A stretch of 64,000 nucleotides of DNA, from sequence record NC_054905.1; one strand, written 5' to 3'. The stretch is from Enterobacteria phage Kha5h. The notes under the pieces were generated by a model. It was given only the letters and a program-made list of their open reading frames with translations. It was not told the origin of the DNA and ran no database searches. Of the stretch, positions 1,477 to 53,589 are shown piece by piece. Both the position numbers and the translations under genes were made by a program. How positions within the stretch are numbered: position 1 is the first letter of the stretch; every line of letters starts with the position of its first letter.

Positions 1477-1501
1477 TTTATTCTCCTTAGTTGATAGGGT
1501 A

Positions 1502-1531
1502 ATAGTATCACACTACTACCCTTCTGTAAAC
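1502..1531 (-). promoter_or_regulatory. sigma70-type phage early promoter (-35 GTTTAC, 18-nt spacer, -10 TACTAT)
   Basis: minus-strand GTTTAC at 1526..1531 and TACTAT at 1502..1507; same cassette recurs through the window. Confidence 0.5.
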
Positions 1532-1917
1532 TACTTTTTGAAAGTTTTTCGCAAAAGTTCAATGATTTCATCTACATTGTTTTCGTCTACAATGCAGTGA
1601 ATTTTTGTTACGCCAGAAACTATACCTTCATTAGCGGATTGAGGCTTTTCTAAAGTTACCTCAGTAAAGTATTTGAATTCTTCAGAGTAAATCTCAAAAT
1701 ACGTCTCAAGTGGGCCACCCGCCATGTATTCAGTGCCATCTTCCATAGTTACACGTACCACACATTCACCAGCACAATCATCACTTTCCATTTCATCTAC
1801 AACAAAACTAGGTCCGTGCTTCTCTATTAAATTTAGCATCATTACATTGCAACGACACTCGTTAGCAAAGTCATTTTTAAATAAAGGGTTAATGATATAA
1901 GTTTTTCCAACTTCCAT
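1531..1917 (-). CDS. hypothetical early protein (128 aa)
   Basis: track ORF. Confidence 0.55.
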   Translation of the reverse strand: MEVGKTYIINPLFKNDFANECRCNVMMLNLIEKHGPSFVVDEMESDDCAGECVVRVTMEDGTEYMAGGPLETYFEIYSEEFKYFTEVTLEKPQSANEGIVSGVTKIHCIVDENNVDEIIELLRKTFKK

Positions 1918-1963
1918 TTTGATTTCCTCATTTTAACGGGGCTATCAAATAGCCCCTTGATAA

Positions 1964-2191
1964 TTATTGTTCAATCAATCCCATGTAAAATTCTGCGTCT
2001 TCAGAATCCATGCCATCACAATATTCATTAGCCATAAAGCGGGTGAGGTCTTCAAGAGGACCTTCAATAACGATTTGAATACTCCAAAACTTAGAATCTT
2101 GCACGCTTGTGATACTAAGTTCAGGATAACGATTACGAATAATTTCTTCAATATATTCAAAATCAACGATGTCAATATCAACTTTAGCCAT
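1964..2191 (-). CDS. hypothetical early protein (~75 aa; start moved to internal ATG with strong SD AAAGAGGAAA)
   Basis: track ORF 1964..2254 extends into the promoter; ATG at 2189..2191 is preceded by a Shine-Dalgarno. Confidence 0.5.
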
Positions 2192-2234
2192 ATTATTTTC
2201 CTCTTTAATCATCAGCAGTATTGCCGATAGTTGT

Positions 2235-2338: not shown

Positions 2339-3247
2339 TTAAAGGTCATTCAAAAGGTCATCCAGGTCCGTGTCATCAGCACTAGATGAACTACCAGAGC
2401 TTGAGCTCATAAAATCATCTTCAGTTTTTGTATTGAAGTCATCAACATTGAATGCATCCAAATCATCAGCAACTTTATCAGCTTTCTTAGCAGCAGTTGC
2501 AGCGGCACCGCCCATCACAGCAGTTCCCATGACTTGACCGAATTTAGTGCTCAGTTCTTCAAATGATTTGAATTTATCTTTAGAAGTCATTTCAGAAAGG
2601 TCAACCATTTGTTCGAACAGTTCTTTCTGGAAAGATTCATCATCAATGTTTGGAATCGCAGATTGATTCAGGAATTTAGATTCGTCGTAGTTACTAAAAC
2701 CAGAAACTTGTTTAACTTTCAGTACAAAGTTAGCACCTTCCCACGGACAAGTTACATCAACCGGAGTTTCACCCATTTCAACATCAACTGCAATCATTGC
2801 ATTGATTTTATCCCAGATTTTCTTACCGAAACGGTATTTAAATACTTTACCTTCGTTTTCTGGAGCAGCTGGGTCTTTTACTACAAGAATGTTAGCCCAG
2901 TAAGAAGTTTTACGTTTAACAAGACCGTACTCTTTATTGTCAGTGTTGTACAGATCATTTTTACTGATGTACTGACATACTGGGCAAGAATCGTAATCAC
3001 CGTGGGTAGATGAACAGTTTTCAATATACCATTTACCATTTTTCTTGAAACCGTGATTTACAAGAATTGCGAATGGTGCTTGTTCATCATTTTTAGACGG
3101 AAGAAAACGAATTACTGCTTGACCGTTACCCGCATTGTCGAGTTTCAGTTTCCACTCGCCTTTATCTTCAGAAGAAAAACCGCCTTTATTTCCAGCCAGT
3201 TTAGCCATTTGTGCAGCGAGTTCAGCAGTAGATTTACGTTTAAACAT
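2339..3247 (-). CDS. 32: single-stranded DNA-binding protein gp32
   Basis: 302 aa; [19 protein letters not shown]... matches T4 gp32 from memory, acidic C-terminus. Confidence 0.97.
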
Positions 3248-3330
3248 TTTTATTTCCTTTTTAATTTAATTAACAGTTGGTGCTATGACGATGTATGACC
3301 TCATAGCTGGTCAGTGAGATAATTATAATC
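3248..3330 (-). promoter_or_regulatory. gene 32 autoregulatory translational operator (5' leader pseudoknot plus AU-rich tract)
   Basis: minus-strand leader reads GCUAUGAGGUCAUACAUCGUCAUAGCACCAACUGUUAAUUAAAUUAAAAAGGAAAUAAAAAUG, as remembered for the T4 gene 32 operator. Confidence 0.75.
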
Positions 3331-3338
3331 TATTTATA
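3331..3338 (-). promoter_or_regulatory. late-promoter-like TATAAATA box upstream of gene 32
   Basis: exact TATAAATA on the minus strand. Confidence 0.45.
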
Positions 3339-3346
3339 ATAAGCAA

Positions 3347-4000
3347 TTAATACTTGCAAGATTTCACAGTTTCAATAAAAACACTTTTAGCTTTCTGTGA
3401 ATCAATATTTAAAATTTTTCTATAAGCCTTTAACTTTATAGAATAATTATTCCAGACTAAATTATCAGTCTGTTCATCATGTTTATCAATTATATTTAAA
3501 AACGAATCAAGCAAGATAAACGTCTCAAACGAAATTATGTTCGATTGCAGAAGTTTAAAAATATAACTTGACTGAACCTTTGGATTATATTCAAAGATTT
3601 CTTTAAAAGCAGAAACTTCAACTTTTTTACTAAAATAATAAATGTTGCGAATATCTTCTTCAAACTTAAATTTAATTTGCTTTAAGCGTCCGATATATTC
3701 ACGATAAAACACAAGTGCATCAGCGTCAGAGATGTCACCAATCCAAGCATCTTGGTTAGCAACCAAATTGCTTATAAAGATTAAAGCAAGTTCCTTTAAT
3801 TTATATTTTTCTGATAACTTCTGGAAAAAATACTTATCCCTTCGCTTTTGATAAGCGGCATCAGACACCCGCATGCACCAATTATACTTAATAACATCAT
3901 ACTTTCCATTCATATGCTGTTTTATCATTAAGTATAATTTATAAACTGATTTACCATCAATGTATCTTTCACCACCAGCAGGCATGCGGAGTTTAATCAT
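3347..4000 (-). CDS. 59: gp59 helicase loader
   Basis: 217 aa, matches T4 gp59 from memory. Confidence 0.93.
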   Translation of the reverse strand: MIKLRMPAGGERYIDGKSVYKLYLMIKQHMNGKYDVIKYNWCMRVSDAAYQKRRDKYFFQKLSEKYKLKELALIFISNLVANQDAWIGDISDADALVFYREYIGRLKQIKFKFEEDIRNIYYFSKKVEVSAFKEIFEYNPKVQSSYIFKLLQSNIISFETFILLDSFLNIIDKHDEQTDNLVWNNYSIKLKAYRKILNIDSQKAKSVFIETVKSCKY

Positions 4001-29381: not shown

Positions 29382-29651
29382 TTATTTAAAGCGGATAGTT
29401 GAATCCTTAAAGAAAAGCCCAGAACATACTGTTCCTTCTACTTTCTGCCCGGTAGGTCCAATAGCACGAAATCCAGTATGTTGGAAATCATTTTCAGAAC
29501 AACCGAACCAATTATATCCAGTGATTTCAATATTAGTAAAACCACTTGATGATAAAATTTTAGTTGCATTATCAGCATCAGTACATCCTACTAAAGATAC
29601 TGCTAATACTAATGCTGCGATAGAACGATTAATATATTTCATAATTTTCAC
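29382..29651 (-). CDS. putative lipoprotein (89 aa)
   Basis: signal peptide with lipobox LVGC: MKIMKYINRSIAALVLAVSLVGCTD... Confidence 0.6.
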   Translation of the reverse strand: MKIMKYINRSIAALVLAVSLVGCTDADNATKILSSSGFTNIEITGYNWFGCSENDFQHTGFRAIGPTGQKVEGTVCSGLFFKDSTIRFK

Positions 29652-43626: not shown

Positions 43627-44208
43627 AACATTTACTTTAGACTGTTTTTCAGATGGCAATTCATATCCACATATTACAATTTTATGATCAATATTAAAAT
43701 ACACAGAAGCAATATGATTAATGATATTTTCAGTGAAGTCTAAATCGACATCAATATCTTTTTGACCAAAGCCCAAAGGATAAATAATGCGAGTAATTCG
43801 ATTATCTTTAACAAAGATTCCACCGACATACTCTGTACTGCGTTTAAAGTCTACACGCCGACGAAATGAAAAATATTCAGGCTCTCTATGAGCTCGGCTC
43901 ATAGGACACAACGAGTAACTAGAATAAGAGATGTCAAATCCTACACCTTCGATATGAGCCAAAGTGTTATGATTAAACCAATTATAATCGTACGCCAAAT
44001 CCATTAGATTATAATATGTAAAAGGCACCGGATTAACATCATTAGTCACAAGCATATAATTAGCAACTGCTATAATTTCATTGTTTTTAACGAATACAAA
44101 CCGTGATTGATGCGAATGACCTGGACCCGCGTTTTCACGATTAATGATATAACACTGGGCACCTTTATATTTGTATGTATCTTTGCACTTGTGCATTTGA
44201 TAGAGCAT
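43582..44208 (-). CDS. hypothetical protein (208 aa), 61.2-like by position
   Basis: track ORF with two internal copies of the FVKNN/FVKDN motif; C-terminal SIDDQIFNAFMNKG. Confidence 0.6.
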   Translation of the reverse strand: MLYQMHKCKDTYKYKGAQCYIINRENAGPGHSHQSRFVFVKNNEIIAVANYMLVTNDVNPVPFTYYNLMDLAYDYNWFNHNTLAHIEGVGFDISYSSYSLCPMSRAHREPEYFSFRRRVDFKRSTEYVGGIFVKDNRITRIIYPLGFGQKDIDVDLDFTENIINHIASVYFNIDHKIVICGYELPSEKQSKVNVSIDDQIFNAFMNKG

Positions 44209-44501
44209 TATTCACCTACCACTTCAGCGATGATATTTTTGTTATTAAAGTTTTTATCGCAATACAGAACATAATTATACTGCATTACACCACCAGACTT
44301 AAGTTGTTTTTGCACTTCAGCTTTCATTTCAGGACGATCGCGCTCAACGATATTCATAATATCCGCTTCAATTTGAGTTTCAACTTCAGTCTGATCTGCA
44401 GTCATAGACCATTCACACAAATCTTTATCATATCCTGCCATAGCAGGCTGAGCAGCGCAAGAAGCTAAAGCAAAAATTGTGGCAAAGATAAATTTTTTCA
44501 T
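44208..44501 (-). CDS. sp: periplasmic protein Spackle-like (superinfection exclusion)
   Basis: 97 aa with N-terminal signal peptide MKKFIFATIFALASCAAQPAMA, size and position as T4 sp. Confidence 0.7.
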   Translation of the reverse strand: MKKFIFATIFALASCAAQPAMAGYDKDLCEWSMTADQTEVETQIEADIMNIVERDRPEMKAEVQKQLKSGGVMQYNYVLYCDKNFNNKNIIAEVVGE

Positions 44502-48091: not shown

Positions 48092-48940
48092 TTAATCAAC
48101 TGCTATTGGATGAATAGCATTAAACTTATGAAATGCTTCTGATTTTTCTTTACGTGAAACACACATGCGAAGAACCTTTAATGGCTCGTCTTCTTCACCC
48201 AACGATTTTCGTTTTTCAATATTAGAAGTTTTCCAACGAGCTTGCTCTGGAAACTCTCTATTGATTTGCTCAAGCGCTCTATTATGTTTAGAATTACTGC
48301 GAATTGAACTACACCCGCCAGGAGCTTGTGCTTTTCCAGATACAACCAGATATTTGAACAAGGCCAAATGCGGATAACCTTGACTAATTAAATTGAGAAA
48401 TGCATACATATCTTCGCATAAATCAATTTTTCCATACCCAATTTGTTCTGTAGTAAGTTTTCCGAGGTCATACCATGTATTCGTGAATCCATATGAATTT
48501 TCACGATAATTACCCCAAGATGAAGTAATTTTAAAAATAGGTAGACGAGCATGGCCATGATAATACCCACAATCCATGGCATCCTCAACATATTGAATCA
48601 ATTCATAGAACTGTTCATGAGTCAATTGATTGACTTTATCCACACAACGACGGTCATCTCTTTTTCGCATTGAACTCATACGAATAGTAGTATCATCGTC
48701 AATCATCCAAATTCGTTGACCTGCATACATATCAGTAATTGCTTTACGAGTACCGGCAATTCCGTTTACATCATCAGGAATAGTTATAATTTTAGCTCTA
48801 GACCCATAAGCATCATAATAAGCTTTTTCTTCGTGTTCACGCACTACAATATGGGGTTCATAATCAGTCGGAAACATATTAAGGGCAGAAACTGCCCCTA
48901 CACGCTGATAACTTGGAATTACGAATTGAATCATTTCCAC
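48092..48940 (-). CDS. putative DNA-modifying glycosyltransferase at the beta-gt locus (not T4 beta-gt-like)
   Basis: 282 aa with DXD-like motif WMIDDDTT; T4 beta-gt at this locus is ~351 aa. Confidence 0.45.
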   Translation of the reverse strand: MEMIQFVIPSYQRVGAVSALNMFPTDYEPHIVVREHEEKAYYDAYGSRAKIITIPDDVNGIAGTRKAITDMYAGQRIWMIDDDTTIRMSSMRKRDDRRCVDKVNQLTHEQFYELIQYVEDAMDCGYYHGHARLPIFKITSSWGNYRENSYGFTNTWYDLGKLTTEQIGYGKIDLCEDMYAFLNLISQGYPHLALFKYLVVSGKAQAPGGCSSIRSNSKHNRALEQINREFPEQARWKTSNIEKRKSLGEEDEPLKVLRMCVSRKEKSEAFHKFNAIHPIAVD

Positions 48941-49671
48941 TCACCGTTATAATCTTTTTTCACAATATGAGTTTCGCCAGTATTCCACCAATGATCAACC
49001 AAGTAAAAATGACGAGAATATACATGAAGACTTCCAACATTCCATATAATAGAACCTGCTTTATACTGACGAGTTGAATCGCCTGCATTCAAATCAGATA
49101 CTAATTTATCTAATACGTATTTTTGCCATGCATAATCATTACGGAATCCGAAGACCACGTCATTTGAGCGCATGCTTACTACTGCATTGACTTTCTTATC
49201 ACGAATCAGGTACTGTACTGTATTAGTACACATGAAATCTGACATACCATCTTTATTGTAGTCAAATTGCATGGATGGACGAGTATAAATCATGATACCA
49301 CGCCGAGAATCAGGATTTTGACCAAGTTCAGCTAAACACATATCATACTGGGCATAGTTATCTTCTGACCAAATAGCCCAACCATAATTCGAGTTAATTT
49401 CGCCTTTAGAAGATGCTACCTGCTGCCAAATCTTTGGTGTTTCACCTGGAATATCTTTAACAAACAAGCTCTTAGATTTATACCATTCAAGTTCGCGCTG
49501 AATGTATTCATCATTAAGAGCGCCAAAAATAAACGGTTCATCTGCTACAAATGATGCGCCAATAATTTCAATAGTTTTAACACCAGTTTTATCAACTACG
49601 AAATCTTTTTCCTTTAATGCAAGCCCCAAATGAAGACGGATTTCTTCAACTGTCATAGAGTCACTAATCAT
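48931..49671 (-). CDS. 42: dCMP hydroxymethylase gp42
   Basis: 246 aa, thymidylate-synthase-like fold sequence. Confidence 0.95.
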   Translation of the reverse strand: MISDSMTVEEIRLHLGLALKEKDFVVDKTGVKTIEIIGASFVADEPFIFGALNDEYIQRELEWYKSKSLFVKDIPGETPKIWQQVASSKGEINSNYGWAIWSEDNYAQYDMCLAELGQNPDSRRGIMIYTRPSMQFDYNKDGMSDFMCTNTVQYLIRDKKVNAVVSMRSNDVVFGFRNDYAWQKYVLDKLVSDLNAGDSTRQYKAGSIIWNVGSLHVYSRHFYLVDHWWNTGETHIVKKDYNGEWK

Positions 49672-49697
49672 TTAAACCTCAATTGATGCATTCATAT

Positions 49698-49829
49698 TTA
49701 AATTGTAACAGTAATAAACCCCACCCCTATGATAAGAGTTGGAATCATAGCAGGAACTGTTACGCTATAGTATATACTTATTATAACCATCAAGATTAAA
49801 AGCAACACTGTTATAATTTTGCTTTTCAT
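49698..49829 (-). CDS. small membrane peptide (43 aa)
   Basis: MKSKIITVLLLILMVIISIYYSVTVPAMIPTLIIGVGFITVTI; ATGA overlap with imm stop. Confidence 0.4.
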   Translation of the reverse strand: MKSKIITVLLLILMVIISIYYSVTVPAMIPTLIIGVGFITVTI

Positions 49830-50077
49830 TCTTTCTCTCTGATGATAATTACCTGATTTGGCTGTGCAGACTTTTTAGTTTCACCAGCAATTGACCAAAT
49901 AAATGTAATAAACCAACCAATAATTGACCAGTTAAACAGTAAAGATGTGAAAAAGATTCCTACTGTCGATTTTGACCCACGCATCAAGGCGATAAACCAT
50001 GGAAGCATGTATATAATAATAGCCAACACACCTGAAACTAAAACCATAAAAATTGAACCTGCTACTAAAGTTTCCAT
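49826..50077 (-). CDS. imm: superinfection immunity protein Imm
   Basis: 83 aa membrane protein, METLVAGSIFMVLVSGVLAIIIYMLPWFIALMRG... Confidence 0.85.
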   Translation of the reverse strand: METLVAGSIFMVLVSGVLAIIIYMLPWFIALMRGSKSTVGIFFTSLLFNWSIIGWFITFIWSIAGETKKSAQPNQVIIIREKE

Positions 50078-50084
50078 GTTTTCC

Positions 50085-50465
50085 TCACTTAGTCAAATTT
50101 TTTACACATGAATTATAAGAATTCACTACATACTCCATCGGAGCATTTTTACCAGTACGCCATTGGTAATTATTAGCCCAATTAGCCCAAATTTCGGCGC
50201 AGTAGTTTTCAATTTTTTCTTCGCGTGTAATTACATCAGAATTACGATATGCTTGAGCAGATTCATCTGGACGAATAGCTTCGTCAAAATTCGCCTGCAT
50301 TTGTTCGACTGTTTGCTTTGGAGCTTCTTTATAACACTTGACATTAGGATTATAAAATTTGCTTGAACAGTTTACAATTTTTCCTACATCAGACTGATTT
50401 ACTACCGGTCCTTGAGCTACACAACCAGTAAGACCTAATGCAATAACCAAAATAGCGATTTTCAT
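50085..50465 (-). CDS. putative lipoprotein (126 aa)
   Basis: signal peptide with lipobox LTGC: MKIAILVIALGLTGCVAQ... Confidence 0.6.
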   Translation of the reverse strand: MKIAILVIALGLTGCVAQGPVVNQSDVGKIVNCSSKFYNPNVKCYKEAPKQTVEQMQANFDEAIRPDESAQAYRNSDVITREEKIENYCAEIWANWANNYQWRTGKNAPMEYVVNSYNSCVKNLTK

Positions 50466-50475
50466 AATAATTTCC

Positions 50476-50712
50476 TCAAATGCAAGTAGTAATTACTCCA
50501 GTAGTGCTTATGCAGGTATTACCCATTTGCACACCTAAAGATCCATTTGTATTCACATGAAGATTATCATCAATTTTAACTGATATTTTACCATTAGTGT
50601 GAATAACGGTGCTAGATTCAATCACAGGTTGAGTATCATTTTCAACACTAACAAATGGAACTGCTGCTAATGCAACTAAACAAACTGCTAAGCATCCCAT
50701 AACAATTTTCAT
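50476..50712 (-). CDS. putative secreted Cys-containing protein (78 aa)
   Basis: ATG 50712 after conserved leader; MKIVMGCLAVCLVALAAVPFVSVEN... Confidence 0.55.
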   Translation of the reverse strand: MKIVMGCLAVCLVALAAVPFVSVENDTQPVIESSTVIHTNGKISVKIDDNLHVNTNGSLGVQMGNTCISTTGVITTCI

Positions 50713-50746
50713 TTTATTCTCCAAATCCGTATTAGTTGATAGTTGT

Positions 50747-50776
50747 ATAGTACCATGGAAGAACAGTCTTGTAAAC
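50747..50776 (-). promoter_or_regulatory. phage early promoter (GTTTAC, 18 nt, TACTAT)
   Basis: minus-strand GTTTAC 50771..50776, TACTAT 50747..50752. Confidence 0.5.
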
Positions 50777-50862: not shown

Positions 50863-50880
50863 AGGGACCCGGAGGTCCCT
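50863..50880 (-). terminator. hairpin after gene 43
   Basis: agggacc cgga ggtccct. Confidence 0.5.
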
Positions 50881-50892
50881 AGATTTATTCTA

Positions 50893-53589
50893 TCAGCCAA
50901 ACAGGAAGTCTAACGAAGCTTTTTCTTCATAGTCCATGCCAGCCGATTCACACATACCCGCAAGCGGTTTAACAAACGATTTTTGGAACAAAGTTGAGTA
51001 GTCAATCCAAGACAGTACGTCAGAACGAATTTCTTTTGGAAGTTCTGTACCCGACGGCCAAGCAATGCATTTGTCACCAAATGGATTTCCTTCACGCAAT
51101 GGAAGAACCATTACTTTATTTCCATCCAAAATTGGAGCTACACCTAAACCGCTAACAGCTCGACGATAAGTTAGCACACCACGAATATGGAACGGACATT
51201 TAAATCCTGGCCAACCTTTATCATCATATTTCGCTATATCGTTCGCAGTTTTTACTTCAGCAATAACTTTATAGTCAAGTTGACGATATTCTTTCTCGAA
51301 GTTCTTGTAATATTCTTGGACAGACTCTTCACCTTCCTGAAGAATACGACGAATACTTTCTTCGAGAGCTTCTTGAACCGCTTTAGGCGTTGAACTTTGC
51401 TGAGTTTCCATACCCATGATTTTTAGATGCGGTTCAGCAAATCGCTTATCTTCCATATCATAAACGTTCAGAGCATAACGCTTTTTCGCTTTCCAAAATC
51501 CACCAACACCCTTTGAACCAAGCGGAGGGCAAGAAATAGCTTCACGGTCCATATGCATCAGATGCTCGCGGTTATTCATATAATCACATAACTCACGATA
51601 TGCAACATCAATCATAGGTTCCATCTTTTTCTTACCGAACTGATTCATAAATTCAACCAAATCGTTCTGCTCTTTGAATCGGTCAAGACCTACTTTTTCA
51701 ATAACTTTATCTACGCAAACATATACCGAATCAGTATCACCTGCTGCGATGAAATCTTCGCCATTAGTTCCGCACACTTTATTCAGATACTCATTAATTT
51801 TACGAGCAATCCACTGAATACCAACTTGGCCGAAAATTGTGATAGCAGTAGCATTTCGCAAATCATAGTAACGGAAATGAATATTACCAAGAGCACCGTA
51901 AAGGCTGTTAATAAGAATTTTACGGTTCAGCTGATTTGTATTAGCAAGTGTAGCTGCTTTTTCACATTCCTCAATCAGACTATTGAGAACAGATTCAGTA
52001 TAATTCGATAGTTCATTTAAGAAATCATCATTGAACTTAACATATCGTTCAACTTCTGGTTTAGTTGAACAAGACCCTGCGCCTTTCATAATAATCTTTT
52101 TAATAGCTTCGGCATTCATTTCTTCAGCGAACATTTTCTTTTTCCAATCTTTACGCTGGAAAAATACTTTAGCGATTTCCTTTGGAATGATACCTTCTTG
52201 ATGCTTATCGTACATCCATCCATTCGGAGAACAAGAATATTCATCACTCGGTTTAGGAGCTGTTCCTGCGATATATTCATGAATTGGATGAACTTTAAAC
52301 TGACCACGAATAGTCTCAGGACTAATGTTAACCTGACGAATAATGCTCGGATACAGAGACGTCAAGTCAAAACTCATAATATATCGACGAGCAATTGGTT
52401 TAGGTTCAAATACAAATGCACCCGGAAAACTTTGTTTAACGTGCGAACCTTGTTGAGGAATAACCTTGTGTTCACCTTTCAATGAGTTAAAAATAATAGC
52501 ATCCCAAGTTTTAATAGGACTCATTACACCAGAAAAAGGCATTTTAGCGTAATAAGACATACTTAAAACTAGATCGATAAACCCGCGAATTTTATCAATT
52601 GCTTGAACTGATTCTACGTCAATGATGTTATAACTAATGTATCGTTGATGATTAGTCTCACGAAGTTTATTAATAGGACCGTCGTATGGTAATTTACCTT
52701 TTTTGGTTTCATGTTGAGCAACTGATTCCAAAGAGAATGACGGCAAATTAGTAAAAGCAAATTTCTTGTACAAATCTAAATAATCAAGAATAGATACGCC
52801 ATCAATAGAATAAATTTCTTTGCTGCCGTACATATTTTGAATTAGTTTAGATTTTACTCGACCGATTGGAGAGAAGCGTTTCATACTACGTTCACCGAGA
52901 ACCATTTTAACGCGATTCATGATATACGGAACGTCAAATCCCTCAATATTCCAACCAGTAAAAATAGCAGGTCGTTTCTGTTCCCAGAGATTGATATATT
53001 CCATGAGCATATCACGCTCATTATCGAATGGCATATAAATTACTCGGTCAAGAATTTCTTGAGGAACTTCATCACCACCTTCACAGTCAAGCTTAGCAGC
53101 TAACTTTGCATCCCATTTTGATACTGAACCGTACATTGAATTCAAAAGGTCGAAAACATAAAAACGATCATCAATTGAATCGTAATGAGTGATAGCATCA
53201 ATTTCATATTCAGCTTTCATTGGGTCAGGAAATTTATCACCAGTAACCTCAATGTCACAGTTAGCTACACGAACAAATTTTCGGTCATAAACAATTTCTG
53301 AACCGTATGTATCACTGATATAAGCGAGTTTAAAATCGTTCATACCGAGAGCTTCGAGACCGATGTCTTCCATTCGTTTCATCCAATCTCGAGCATCTTT
53401 CATTGATGGAAATTTTTGAGGAGCGCAGTTTTTACCATAGATGTCTTTGTATTTTGACTCTTCCTTACAATGCCTAAACATAGTTGGAAGATATTCTACT
53501 TCACGAGTACGTTCCTTTCCGTTTTCATCAATATAACGTTCAACAATGTTATTTCCAACTGTTTCGATAGAGATATAAAATTCTTTCAT
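50893..53589 (-). CDS. 43: DNA polymerase gp43 (family B)
   Basis: 898 aa, sequence and length as T4 gp43. Confidence 0.97.
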   Translation of the reverse strand: MKEFYISIETVGNNIVERYIDENGKERTREVEYLPTMFRHCKEESKYKDIYGKNCAPQKFPSMKDARDWMKRMEDIGLEALGMNDFKLAYISDTYGSEIVYDRKFVRVANCDIEVTGDKFPDPMKAEYEIDAITHYDSIDDRFYVFDLLNSMYGSVSKWDAKLAAKLDCEGGDEVPQEILDRVIYMPFDNERDMLMEYINLWEQKRPAIFTGWNIEGFDVPYIMNRVKMVLGERSMKRFSPIGRVKSKLIQNMYGSKEIYSIDGVSILDYLDLYKKFAFTNLPSFSLESVAQHETKKGKLPYDGPINKLRETNHQRYISYNIIDVESVQAIDKIRGFIDLVLSMSYYAKMPFSGVMSPIKTWDAIIFNSLKGEHKVIPQQGSHVKQSFPGAFVFEPKPIARRYIMSFDLTSLYPSIIRQVNISPETIRGQFKVHPIHEYIAGTAPKPSDEYSCSPNGWMYDKHQEGIIPKEIAKVFFQRKDWKKKMFAEEMNAEAIKKIIMKGAGSCSTKPEVERYVKFNDDFLNELSNYTESVLNSLIEECEKAATLANTNQLNRKILINSLYGALGNIHFRYYDLRNATAITIFGQVGIQWIARKINEYLNKVCGTNGEDFIAAGDTDSVYVCVDKVIEKVGLDRFKEQNDLVEFMNQFGKKKMEPMIDVAYRELCDYMNNREHLMHMDREAISCPPLGSKGVGGFWKAKKRYALNVYDMEDKRFAEPHLKIMGMETQQSSTPKAVQEALEESIRRILQEGEESVQEYYKNFEKEYRQLDYKVIAEVKTANDIAKYDDKGWPGFKCPFHIRGVLTYRRAVSGLGVAPILDGNKVMVLPLREGNPFGDKCIAWPSGTELPKEIRSDVLSWIDYSTLFQKSFVKPLAGMCESAGMDYEEKASLDFLFG

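Follow-up and report, generated by a model that had tools for sequence, protein, structure and literature searches.

An early block of T4-like phages combines the superinfection-immunity gene imm with three small envelope-directed genes: imm.1, orf78, and a gene for a small membrane peptide, represented here by the shortened allele orf43. The block was analyzed in a 64,000-nt stretch of Enterobacteria phage Kha5h (NC_054905.1), referred to below as the window. We read it as a conserved early imm.1–imm unit in which Imm.1 and the small peptide are envelope accessories, with orf78 as a dispensable exported accessory, and would give this reading a probability of about 60%.

The region is that of a T2/T6-like Tequatrovirus and is 99.6% identical to the corresponding part of phage Aplg8. 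It is matched by 514 records, mostly named as Escherichia or Shigella phages, and the cluster is found at 90% or higher DNA identity in more than 500 sequenced phages. As a sequence feature, then, the imm.1–imm cluster is already known and ordinary, being present in hundreds of genomes. The four small ORFs reported for it in the initial annotation were all recovered on the minus strand with the same boundaries (Table 1), and all four match PHROG families, which is more than chance ORFs do.

Table 1. Features of the imm region and other exported proteins encoded in the window.
Feature	Position	Strand	Remarks
Predicted 86-aa lipoprotein (phrog_902)	29382..29642	-	lipobox LVGC; intact form of T4 gene 39.1
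sp (Spackle, gp61.3), periplasmic inhibitor of gp5 tail lysozyme	44208..44501	-	PF25676
Gene 42 (dCMP hydroxymethylase)	48931..49671	-	next gene, same transcription unit
Full stretch showing homology to the normal, unshifted 49-aa ORF	49679..49829	-	from alignment with T4, Aplg8, and IMG/VR loci
orf43, frameshifted allele of the 46–49-aa membrane peptide (phrog_3610), 43 aa	49698..49829	-	hydrophobic almost throughout
imm, superinfection immunity protein, 83 aa, inner membrane	49826..50077	-	PF14373
imm.1 (T4 gp Imm.1, DUF5481), predicted lipoprotein, 126 aa	50085..50465	-	lipobox LTGC, Cys15
orf78 (phrog_4189), predicted to be exported or membrane-anchored, 78 aa	50476..50712	-	N-terminal hydrophobic segment; Cys7, Cys11, Cys67, Cys77
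Predicted T4-type early promoter	50747..50775	-	-35 (G)TTTACA, 17-nt spacer, TG-extended -10 TACTAT, upstream A-tract
Intrinsic terminator after gene 43 (DNA polymerase)	50863..50880	-	AGGGACCTCCGGGTCCCT then TTTTT; conserved in T4

Gene Order and Transcription Signals

Read along the minus strand, the order is gene-43 terminator, early promoter, orf78, imm.1, imm, orf43, gene 42. The T4 annotation has imm.1, imm, 42, and 43 in the same arrangement (NP_049661 and NP_049660 for imm.1 and imm), with the same terminator and early promoter. The two loci differ in that the window has orf78 added between promoter and imm.1, and a frameshifted 43-aa peptide where T4 has one of 49 aa. Upstream of the block there is a single promoter and a single terminator, both conserved in T4; the record of phage DalCa annotates a terminator at the equivalent site.

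The promoter (AAAAAATTTTCACAAAACTGTTTACA) is predicted to be of the sigma-70/T4-early type, with the elements expected of T4 early promoters. Its near-identical T4 counterpart sits straight before imm.1, orf78 being absent there, and since T4 keeps the promoter without orf78 it was assigned to the whole operon. The initial annotation had described orf78 as a secreted, Cys-containing protein with an early promoter cassette of its own: the ORF, the signal-like N-terminus, the Cys residues, and an early-type promoter are indeed present, but the promoter belongs to the operon rather than to orf78. As predicted, this one early promoter would drive orf78, imm.1, imm, the small peptide, gene 42, and a glucosyltransferase gene. 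Scans for tandem repeats and promoters inside the coding regions found none beyond chance.

Imm

Lu and Henning are said to have found in 1989 that immunity is conferred by cloned imm alone. The window protein is a small, very hydrophobic, full-length member of the Imm family (58.2 bits against PF14373, Imm_superinfect, with a cut-off of 27.9, E = 7.7e-16; E = 3.6e-32 against phrog_1039, “immunity to superinfection”), and its gene has 98.0% nucleotide identity to T4 imm and a dN/dS of 0.04. A possible 94-aa, N-terminally extended form of T4 Imm could not be produced from the window. Residues R33 and W50 are both present, and are invariant in our Imm alignment (A3); they are functionally important, in that their mutation lowers exclusion (bioRxiv 10.64898/2026.03.06.709160). 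According to the same preprint, Imm binds the tape-measure protein gp29 of the superinfecting phage, so that genome translocation is blocked, and Imm expressed by itself from a plasmid excludes T4. Imm.1 is therefore dispensable for the core exclusion activity; neither “imm.1” nor “lipoprotein” occurs in that text.

The Imm.1 Lipoprotein

The gene preceding imm, which ends 7 nt before the imm ATG, was initially annotated as encoding a 126-aa lipoprotein with lipobox LTGC. Both ORF and lipobox were confirmed; what had gone unrecognized is that this is the already-annotated T4 Imm.1. The protein matches DUF5481 (PF17578) over profile positions 1–103 of 103 (237.6 bits, E = 1.7e-71), the gene has 96.6% nucleotide identity to T4 imm.1, and the Aplg8 counterpart is annotated as similar to T4 Imm.1. 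The name “iduronate sulfatase,” also attached to imm.1, is spurious.

Lipoproteins were recognized by a lipobox, [LVI][ASTVI][GAS]C, falling in roughly the first 25 residues, after n- and h-regions. The Imm.1 N-terminus (MKIAILVIALGLTGC), with a basic n-region, a hydrophobic h-region, and the lipobox, is a predicted lipoprotein signal of this kind. At position +2 the window protein has Val, and its relatives have G, A, S, or Q; because there is no Asp at +2, sorting to the outer membrane is predicted. The lipobox Cys is kept in five of six representatives of the Imm.1 family, and the lipobox is retained in RB69, in metagenomic relatives, and in the remote homologs of VR26, CGG4-1/STML-198, Merlin/Moon, and KpV477. 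In one relative (P0004) an ordinary signal peptide replaces it, and lipid anchoring is therefore not universal in this group. Of the other cysteines, Cys89 and Cys120 are invariant and Cys33 and Cys44 covary, a pattern that supports periplasmic disulfides, of which such conserved or covarying pairs are typical. Conservation is very high overall: across about 500 Tequatrovirus records, under Escherichia, Shigella, Yersinia, Salmonella, and Citrobacter names, the identity of Imm.1 is 95% or more, and imm.1 has a dN/dS of 0.04.

AlphaFold2 modeling gave a pLDDT of 61 from the single sequence and 64.5 from an alignment of six; the only confident part is a C-terminal helical hairpin (about 85–89). 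Fold searches with these moderate models (pLDDT 61–65) returned matches to the family itself only. A word-indexed sequence search found three clusters, and an exhaustive HMMER search only six representatives among 1.8 billion; there were no bacterial homologs in either. Apart from DUF5481, no family match was found in Pfam, NCBIfam, or PADLOC, and PDB sequence searches with Imm.1 and orf78 gave nothing significant. The literature searched gives no function to Imm.1 and does not mention DUF5481; where it pairs imm.1 with superinfection this is speculation only, and the main text of HIDEN-SEQ discusses neither imm nor imm.1.

Co-occurrence of imm.1 and imm

All T4-like loci examined have an Imm.1-type lipoprotein gene adjoining imm, although the surroundings and the order of the genes differ. 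In T4-like phages, imm.1 is beside imm between genes 43 and 42; RB69 has 61.4, imm.1, imm, and sp in one contiguous run; VR26-type phages have the arrangement imm–peptide–lipoprotein; and KpV477 also has a lipoprotein–imm pair. The two genes also lie side by side in metagenomic relatives of three lineages, with identities of 32–46%. Around non-T4-like PF14373 genes, by comparison, only one locus in 33 has an adjacent lipoprotein gene. Synteny among related phages is partly a matter of common descent, yet the pair outlasts at least two relocations or inversions.

Relationship of the remote lipoproteins to Imm.1 was assessed by hhalign with mature sequences (probability 88%, E = 3e-6, score 39.6, where shuffled sequences reached no more than 16.6), and comes chiefly from a motif of about 32 residues at the N-terminus. 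A first comparison with full-length Imm.1 had given 97.5%, a value inflated by the signal peptides. As far as gene neighborhoods indicate, imm.1 accompanies imm in many genera of phages. What points to a possible role in superinfection exclusion for Imm.1 and the small peptide is solely this synteny with imm.

The Small Membrane Peptide

A small peptide is encoded directly after imm in 21 loci from several lineages, the window among them; the orf43 ATG overlaps the imm stop codon (ATGA). The initial annotation had it as a 43-aa membrane peptide, and the ORF and its hydrophobicity stand, but it is a truncated allele of a longer peptide. Against Aplg8 and 18 further loci, a single additional G is present in the window, within ATAGGGGTGGGG (a CCCC run on the plus strand, 49724..49727). 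Unshifted loci encode 46–49 aa ending in LQxKYEC(I/F)N, while the window allele ends in GVGFITVTI, the conserved C-terminus having been lost to this +1 frameshift; the out-of-frame remnant still encodes QFKYECIN and a stop codon. The 43-aa form accordingly stops short of a full-length match to phrog_3610 (54 bits, profile positions 1–38 of 47), whereas the repaired peptide covers all of it (92 bits, 1–47 of 47).

Only two of the 21 loci have the frameshifted form: that of the window and that of phage teqhad, which was sequenced independently. In this form the initial 33–34 of 49 residues remain, with the first hydrophobic helix and a P-x-MIPT turn among them. For the full-length form, pS is about 2–4 times pN both within and between genera, indicating purifying selection; T4 carries a 49-aa version that is unannotated in its RefSeq record. 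The sequence features support a membrane hairpin or anchor.

A Variable Gene at the Promoter-Proximal End

orf78 is preceded by a ribosome-binding site, GGAG, 7 nt upstream of its ATG. Its N-terminus is hydrophobic, and signal peptidase I might cleave it near ALAA|V. The length of the h-region varies by 7-aa duplications, and in some alleles a LAAC lipobox arises; the protein may thus be an uncleaved anchor or lipidated. The mature part is Thr-, Asn-, and Gly-rich with a conserved C-terminal pair, Cys67/Cys77. Sequence searches found no family or structural analog.

About 65% of Tequatroviruses have orf78. It is missing from T4 and about 35% of records, is scrambled in phage CT01, and evolves 3–5 times faster than its neighbors. 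The difference between T4 and the window is a clean ATG-to-ATG indel of 247 bp, bounded by the repeat ATGAAAAT, by which T4 lacks orf78. All full-length alleles nevertheless keep an open frame, with indels in multiples of three, and dN/dS is 0.33 for the gene and 0.26 for the mature part. By these measures orf78 is a real gene, but a variable, dispensable, and accessory one; it is hypervariable, at a recombination-prone junction. Being variable and absent from T4, it has no syntenic support for a role in exclusion.

Possible Functions

That the proteins next to imm are directed to the envelope, as the initial annotation proposed, is supported by their sequences: the lipobox and Cys pairs of Imm.1, the signal-like N-terminus of orf78, and the hydrophobic small peptide. 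Identities, signals, operon structure, synteny, and selection are described above as observed; from here on, localization and every functional role other than that of Imm are ones we infer. Imm.1 would most likely leave the cytoplasm through Sec, receive its lipid on Cys15, and be carried by Lol to the outer membrane, on whose periplasmic face the mature part would form a disulfide-stapled, mostly helical domain. Because it is co-inherited with imm, it may be a periplasmic accessory of an entry-blocking or envelope-protecting function, and its likely target would be either the local envelope or the incoming tail-tip/tape-measure complex. For the 46–49-aa peptide, translation would be coupled to that of imm, and a role as a small partner in the inner membrane is probable; in the window phage the frameshift has removed its conserved C-terminus. 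orf78 would be a fast-evolving, dispensable exported accessory.

More tentatively, Imm.1, Imm, and the 46–49-aa peptide might together be a conserved three-part exclusion module of T4-like phages that spans the envelope, although we would not favor so much. Imm.1 would then capture or misdirect the tail-tip/tape-measure complex in the periplasm, Imm would stop insertion of the tape measure into the inner membrane, and the peptide would tune Imm. On such a scheme Imm would be the core only, and the larger machine could have been overlooked with imm alone giving the plasmid phenotype.

At the other extreme, Imm.1, the small peptide, and orf78 could be envelope proteins unrelated to exclusion, neighbors of imm through a common early promoter and timing; lysis timing or lysis inhibition, envelope stabilization, control of outer-membrane vesicles or debris as decoys, and defense evasion are examples of such jobs. 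This would agree with the exclusion of T4 by plasmid-borne Imm alone, and with the lack of homology to characterized exclusion proteins in Pfam, NCBIfam, PADLOC, and PDB sequence searches. Other small exported early proteins, the 39.1-type lipoprotein and Spackle (Table 1), are scattered elsewhere, so envelope-directed early genes are common and not always linked to imm. It is harder to reconcile with a lipoprotein–imm pair that survives both relocation (in RB69, next to sp) and reversal (VR26-type), with the contiguity of imm.1, imm, and sp in RB69, and with the absence of the pairing, but for the one case in 33, around non-T4-like PF14373 genes; we consider it unlikely. Loss of function is another possibility, with orf43 an inactivated, frameshifted remnant and orf78 a decaying accessory ORF heading for loss, as in T4. 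The missing LQxKYEC(I/F)N terminus and the rarity of the orf43 allele would fit, as would the patchy presence of orf78, its scrambling in CT01, and its rate of change. However, 33–34 of the 49 residues of the peptide are kept, the same allele recurs in teqhad, and the full-length peptide is under purifying selection, while full-length orf78 alleles have only in-frame indels, an open frame throughout, and a mature-part dN/dS of 0.26; we consider this loss of function very improbable.

Receptor masking is the best-known job of phage outer-membrane lipoproteins (T5 Llp, Cor of T1 and phi80), and Imm.1, as a predicted outer-membrane lipoprotein made early, might similarly bind the phage's outer-membrane receptor, blocking irreversible adsorption of further virions and sparing progeny from loss on cell debris. 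T-even phages use different protein receptors (OmpC, Tsx, OmpF/FadL, OmpA), however, and a receptor-specific blocker should co-vary with the receptor, whereas Imm.1 is extremely conserved across hosts, as its identity and dN/dS values above attest. Exclusion by T-even phages has also classically been attributed to post-adsorption steps, and the searches described found no sequence or fold similarity of Imm.1 to known families except DUF5481. A masking role is accordingly the least probable of these alternatives, and the preferred reading of Imm.1 as an accessory of the imm unit is retained.

Comparison with Other Exclusion Proteins

Besides Llp and Cor, known exclusion lipoproteins include Ltp of Streptococcus TP-J34, which blocks tape-measure-dependent DNA entry and acts on the same step as Imm. 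By analogy, Imm.1 as predicted would resemble Llp, Cor, and Ltp in being phage-encoded, lipid-anchored, and facing the compartment that the incoming tail crosses. No sequence or family relationship to them was found in Pfam, NCBIfam, PADLOC, or PDB sequence searches, and Imm.1 differs in always occurring with a separate inner-membrane exclusion protein.

The window also encodes Spackle, which acts in the periplasm to inhibit the gp5 tail lysozyme (PMC7677548); the “Spackle-like” protein of the initial annotation is a full-length match to PF25676 (151.1 bits, E = 1.3e-44, positions 1–96 of 96). Its resemblance to the predicted Imm.1 lies in small size, early expression, export, and a helical mature domain stabilized by disulfides. 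Although Spackle carries LASC, which resembles a lipobox, its processing yields a soluble protein of the periplasm (PMC7677548), so motif-based lipoprotein calls can mislead; the lipobox of Imm.1, by contrast, is canonical and conserved. Homology between the two was rejected, since hhalign aligns only residues 1–19, the signal peptides. The further lipoprotein listed initially (29382..29651, minus strand) does have a lipobox, LVGC.

How T-even phages exclude superinfecting phages is a classic problem, in which the mechanism of Imm has been clarified only by a 2026 preprint (bioRxiv 10.64898/2026.03.06.709160). The published Imm–gp29 mechanism involves Imm alone, whereas the window has a neighboring lipoprotein and peptide as well. 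If this lipoprotein and an unannotated micro-protein take part, the Imm model would be incomplete, with factors at both membranes, and there would be consequences for phage–phage competition and for the design of phage cocktails. For annotation, corrections are indicated in two places, the 49-aa ORF (orf49) missing from the T4 annotation and the misnaming of imm.1 as “iduronate sulfatase”; the peptide allele of the window phage is flagged as frameshifted.

Gene content and transcription signals of the imm region

The imm.1–imm locus is already known, and hundreds of genomes carry it; the main new observation here is a conserved pairing of a lipoprotein gene with imm. The 1.3-kb region matches 514 phage records, with at least 90% identity to all except two and 99.6% to Enterobacteria phage Aplg8. 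Most of them bear Escherichia or Shigella phage names, and the example records fetched are classified as Tequatrovirus. The T4 RefSeq annotation of the corresponding interval lists 43, imm.1, imm, and 42; in the window, gene 42 is followed by a T2/T6-type glucosyltransferase gene. All ORFs named in the initial annotation are present on the minus strand at the coordinates given there, each with a plausible ribosome-binding site upstream, and the envelope targeting proposed there for the small proteins holds as a sequence-based prediction. Two product names in the T4 record (NC_000866) appear to be artefacts of annotation transfer: “iduronate sulfatase” for imm.1 (2637..3014), already copied to other phage records (e.g., JLBYU31), and “thymidylate synthase” for gene 42 (1480..2220).

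Features of the window discussed in the text, with positions and strand
Feature	Coordinates	Strand	Remarks
Lipoprotein gene (T4 39.1)	29382..29642	minus	86 aa; lipobox LVGC; phrog_902
sp (Spackle, gp61.3)	44208..44501	minus	PF25676, E=1.3e-44
Gene 42	48931..49671	minus	dCMP hydroxymethylase; flanks locus
Small peptide ORF	49698..49829	minus	43 aa; PHROG family 3610, of unknown function
imm	49826..50077	minus	PF14373, E=7.7e-16
Site of extra C in T4	50078..50098	minus	5' of imm ATG
imm.1	50085..50465	minus	126 aa; DUF5481 end to end, E=1.7e-71
Top sigma-70-like match	50349..50377	minus	TTGTAA, 17 nt, TATAAT; 10/12
orf78	50476..50712	minus	78 aa; PHROG family 4189, of unknown function
Promoter	50775..50747	minus	After terminator; -35 (G)TTTACA, 17-nt spacer, TG-extended -10 TACTAT, upstream A-tract
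Intrinsic terminator	50880..50863	minus	After gene 43
Gene 43	50893..53589	minus	DNA polymerase; flanks locus

The early promoter had been assigned to orf78 as its own cassette. On alignment, however, terminator and promoter are almost unchanged in T4, where orf78 is absent; the promoter therefore belongs to the operon. Exactly 247 bp, from the orf78 ATG to the imm.1 ATG, are missing from T4, so that T4 imm.1 uses the ribosome-binding site that is orf78's in the window. Both ends of this gap fall in a repeated octamer, ATGAAAAT, and an IMG/VR Tequatrovirus contig has a junction identical to T4's: the transcription unit starts with a gene, orf78, that is polymorphic as an indel. Promoter-like matches in the region are no more numerous than expected from shuffling; the highest-scoring is internal to imm.1 and 5' of imm. 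In Shigella phage CT01 (OK018184.1, 880..1750) the locus is scrambled, with the promoter, the first 31 codons of imm.1, and a middle fragment of orf78 preceding a second copy of the -10 region and ribosome-binding site and then a complete imm.1. Recombination may have left this arrangement as a scar, or it may be an artefact of assembly; the mosaic suggests that the promoter/orf78 junction is prone to rearrangement.

A total of 324 phage records contain orf78, and about 500 contain a Tequatrovirus-type Imm.1, which puts orf78 at ~65%. The gene shows 10–17% nucleotide divergence from the window in genomes that differ from it by only 0–4% in imm.1, imm, and gene 43, but it is under purifying selection (dN/dS 0.33 overall and 0.26 for the mature part; 0.04 for both imm.1 and imm). 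All its length differences preserve the frame; among them are duplications of 7 residues in the hydrophobic N-terminus, and certain of these generate a canonical LAAC lipobox. This N-terminus could be either an anchor or a signal that is cleaved, possibly at ALAA|V. The mature part contains much Thr, Asn, and Gly, and its Cys67/Cys77 pair is conserved.

Imm and the small membrane peptide

Window Imm has both R33 and W50. T4 has one extra C just 5' of the imm start, which opens an in-frame N-terminal extension; the resulting 94-residue protein is the form in a 2026 cryo-EM preprint (bioRxiv 10.64898/2026.03.06.709160). In the window, an in-frame TGA 18 nt 5' of the imm ATG permits only an 83-aa Imm, and the extension is thus not conserved.

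The peptide ORF, whose start codon and the imm stop codon overlap in the sequence ATGA, does exist as initially described, but at 43 aa it is a frameshifted allele of a 46–49-aa peptide, with one additional G in window ATAGGGGTGGGG compared to Aplg8. The longer form (MKSKII...P-x-MIPT(L/I)I(L/I)GW...LQxKYEC(I/F)N) is encoded in 19 of the 21 loci with the gene; the 43-aa form, which ends GVGFITVTI and has lost the conserved C-terminal motif, occurs only in the window and phage teqhad. It may be a genuine mutation common to both, or a homopolymer sequencing error. Frame repair gives a whole-length match to phrog_3610 (92 bits, vs. 54 for the 43-aa form). The gene is directly 3' of imm in Tequatroviruses, among them T4 (whose RefSeq record has no annotation in the 153-bp interval), in two metagenomic lineages (L005 and L007/L008), and in VR26-type phages (L016, L017, L020). 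Within Tequatrovirus (dN/dS 0.35), and also from one lineage to another, synonymous differences outnumber non-synonymous ones ~2–4 fold; the peptide is therefore a genuine, conserved micro-protein. The Aplg8 record places a “cos sites” misc_feature within this gene.

Imm.1 and other predicted lipoproteins

The 126-aa ORF belongs to the T4 Imm.1 family, and its earlier designation as a predicted lipoprotein is supported by a canonical lipobox in the N-terminus, MKIAILVIALGLTGC. In E. coli, the residue after the lipidated Cys governs lipoprotein sorting; here it is Val rather than Asp, so outer-membrane sorting would be expected. The family has very few members: HMMER, run exhaustively, found six representatives among 1.84 billion, and the cultured phages comprise ~500 Tequatrovirus records at ≥95% identity and 155 RB69-type records at ~33%. 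Cys89 and Cys120 are invariant, while Cys33 and Cys44 co-occur or are both missing, a pattern that fits periplasmic disulfides. In one metagenomic relative, an ordinary signal peptide (…SAHA|SDK) takes the place of the lipobox, so the constant feature of the family is the periplasm and not lipid anchoring.

Motif-only lipoprotein calls can mislead. The “Spackle-like” ORF is Spackle itself, and its signal peptide has a lipobox-like LASC (Cys15; AVSC in the RB69 counterpart); published mature Spackle is a soluble 75-aa periplasmic protein (PMC7677548). The further lipoprotein initially placed at 29382..29651 is intact in the window, whereas T4 gene 39.1 is split by a frameshift and annotated in RefSeq as 65 aa, without a signal peptide.

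Lipoprotein–imm pairing across T4-like phages

In RB69-type phages, imm.1, imm, and sp are contiguous (2495..3530 in RB69) in the order 61.4 – imm.1 – imm – sp – 61.2, away from the 43/42 interval; in T4-type genomes these genes are ~5 kb apart. RB69-type phages have no small peptide gene after imm. In the metagenomic lineages L005, L006, and L007/L008, a DUF5481 gene (Imm.1 32–46% identical) is directly 5' of a PF14373 gene. A lipoprotein gene is also directly 5' of imm in CGG4-1, STML-198, Merlin, Moon, and KpV477; VR26-type phages have the order imm – peptide – lipoprotein, and in UGJNEcP3 the lipoprotein gene is ~145 nt 3' of imm. The pairing has outlasted at least one relocation and one gene-order change. 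Among non-T4-like viral loci with a PF14373 gene, 1 of 33 has a neighboring lipoprotein, so the pairing is specific to T4-like phages.

The lipoproteins of the five named phages and the VR26 type have in common two C-terminal Cys, helical content, and the motif QG-x-VV-x-x-S-x-VG(K/Q) after the Cys. When the mature sequences are compared profile to profile, they are related to Imm.1 (probability 88%, E=3e-6, score 39.6; column-shuffled controls ≤16.6), with the alignment confined to the N-terminal ~32 residues. A full-length figure of 97.5% was set aside, the score being inflated by signal peptides.

Possible roles in superinfection exclusion

Imm co-purifies with the tape-measure protein gp29, its exclusion is lowered by W50A and R33A, and plasmid-borne Imm alone is enough for exclusion (bioRxiv 10.64898/2026.03.06.709160); any contribution from Imm.1, the peptide, or orf78 would therefore be auxiliary. 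Spackle blocks the gp5 tail lysozyme in the periplasm (PMC7677548). The searchable literature yielded no functional study of Imm.1, only a single speculative sentence tying it to exclusion (PMC5885020).

Co-transcription and conserved synteny with imm, and in RB69 with sp too, suggest that Imm.1 has a periplasmic role complementing Imm. After Sec export, lipidation, and outer-membrane anchoring, it would most likely act on the tail-tip or tape-measure complex of an incoming phage, or protect the local envelope. The peptide, translationally coupled to imm, would most simply be a membrane partner or modulator of Imm, and orf78 an accessory protein that is exported and variable. Synteny makes a part in exclusion plausible for Imm.1 and the peptide; for orf78 it is unsupported. 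We would give about one chance in four to an exclusion module of three components that spans the envelope and is conserved across T4-like phages. Imm.1 could instead mask a receptor, as Llp/Cor-type proteins do. T-even phage receptors differ, however, while Imm.1 hardly varies among phages from Escherichia, Shigella, Yersinia, Salmonella, and Citrobacter hosts, which makes masking of this type unlikely.
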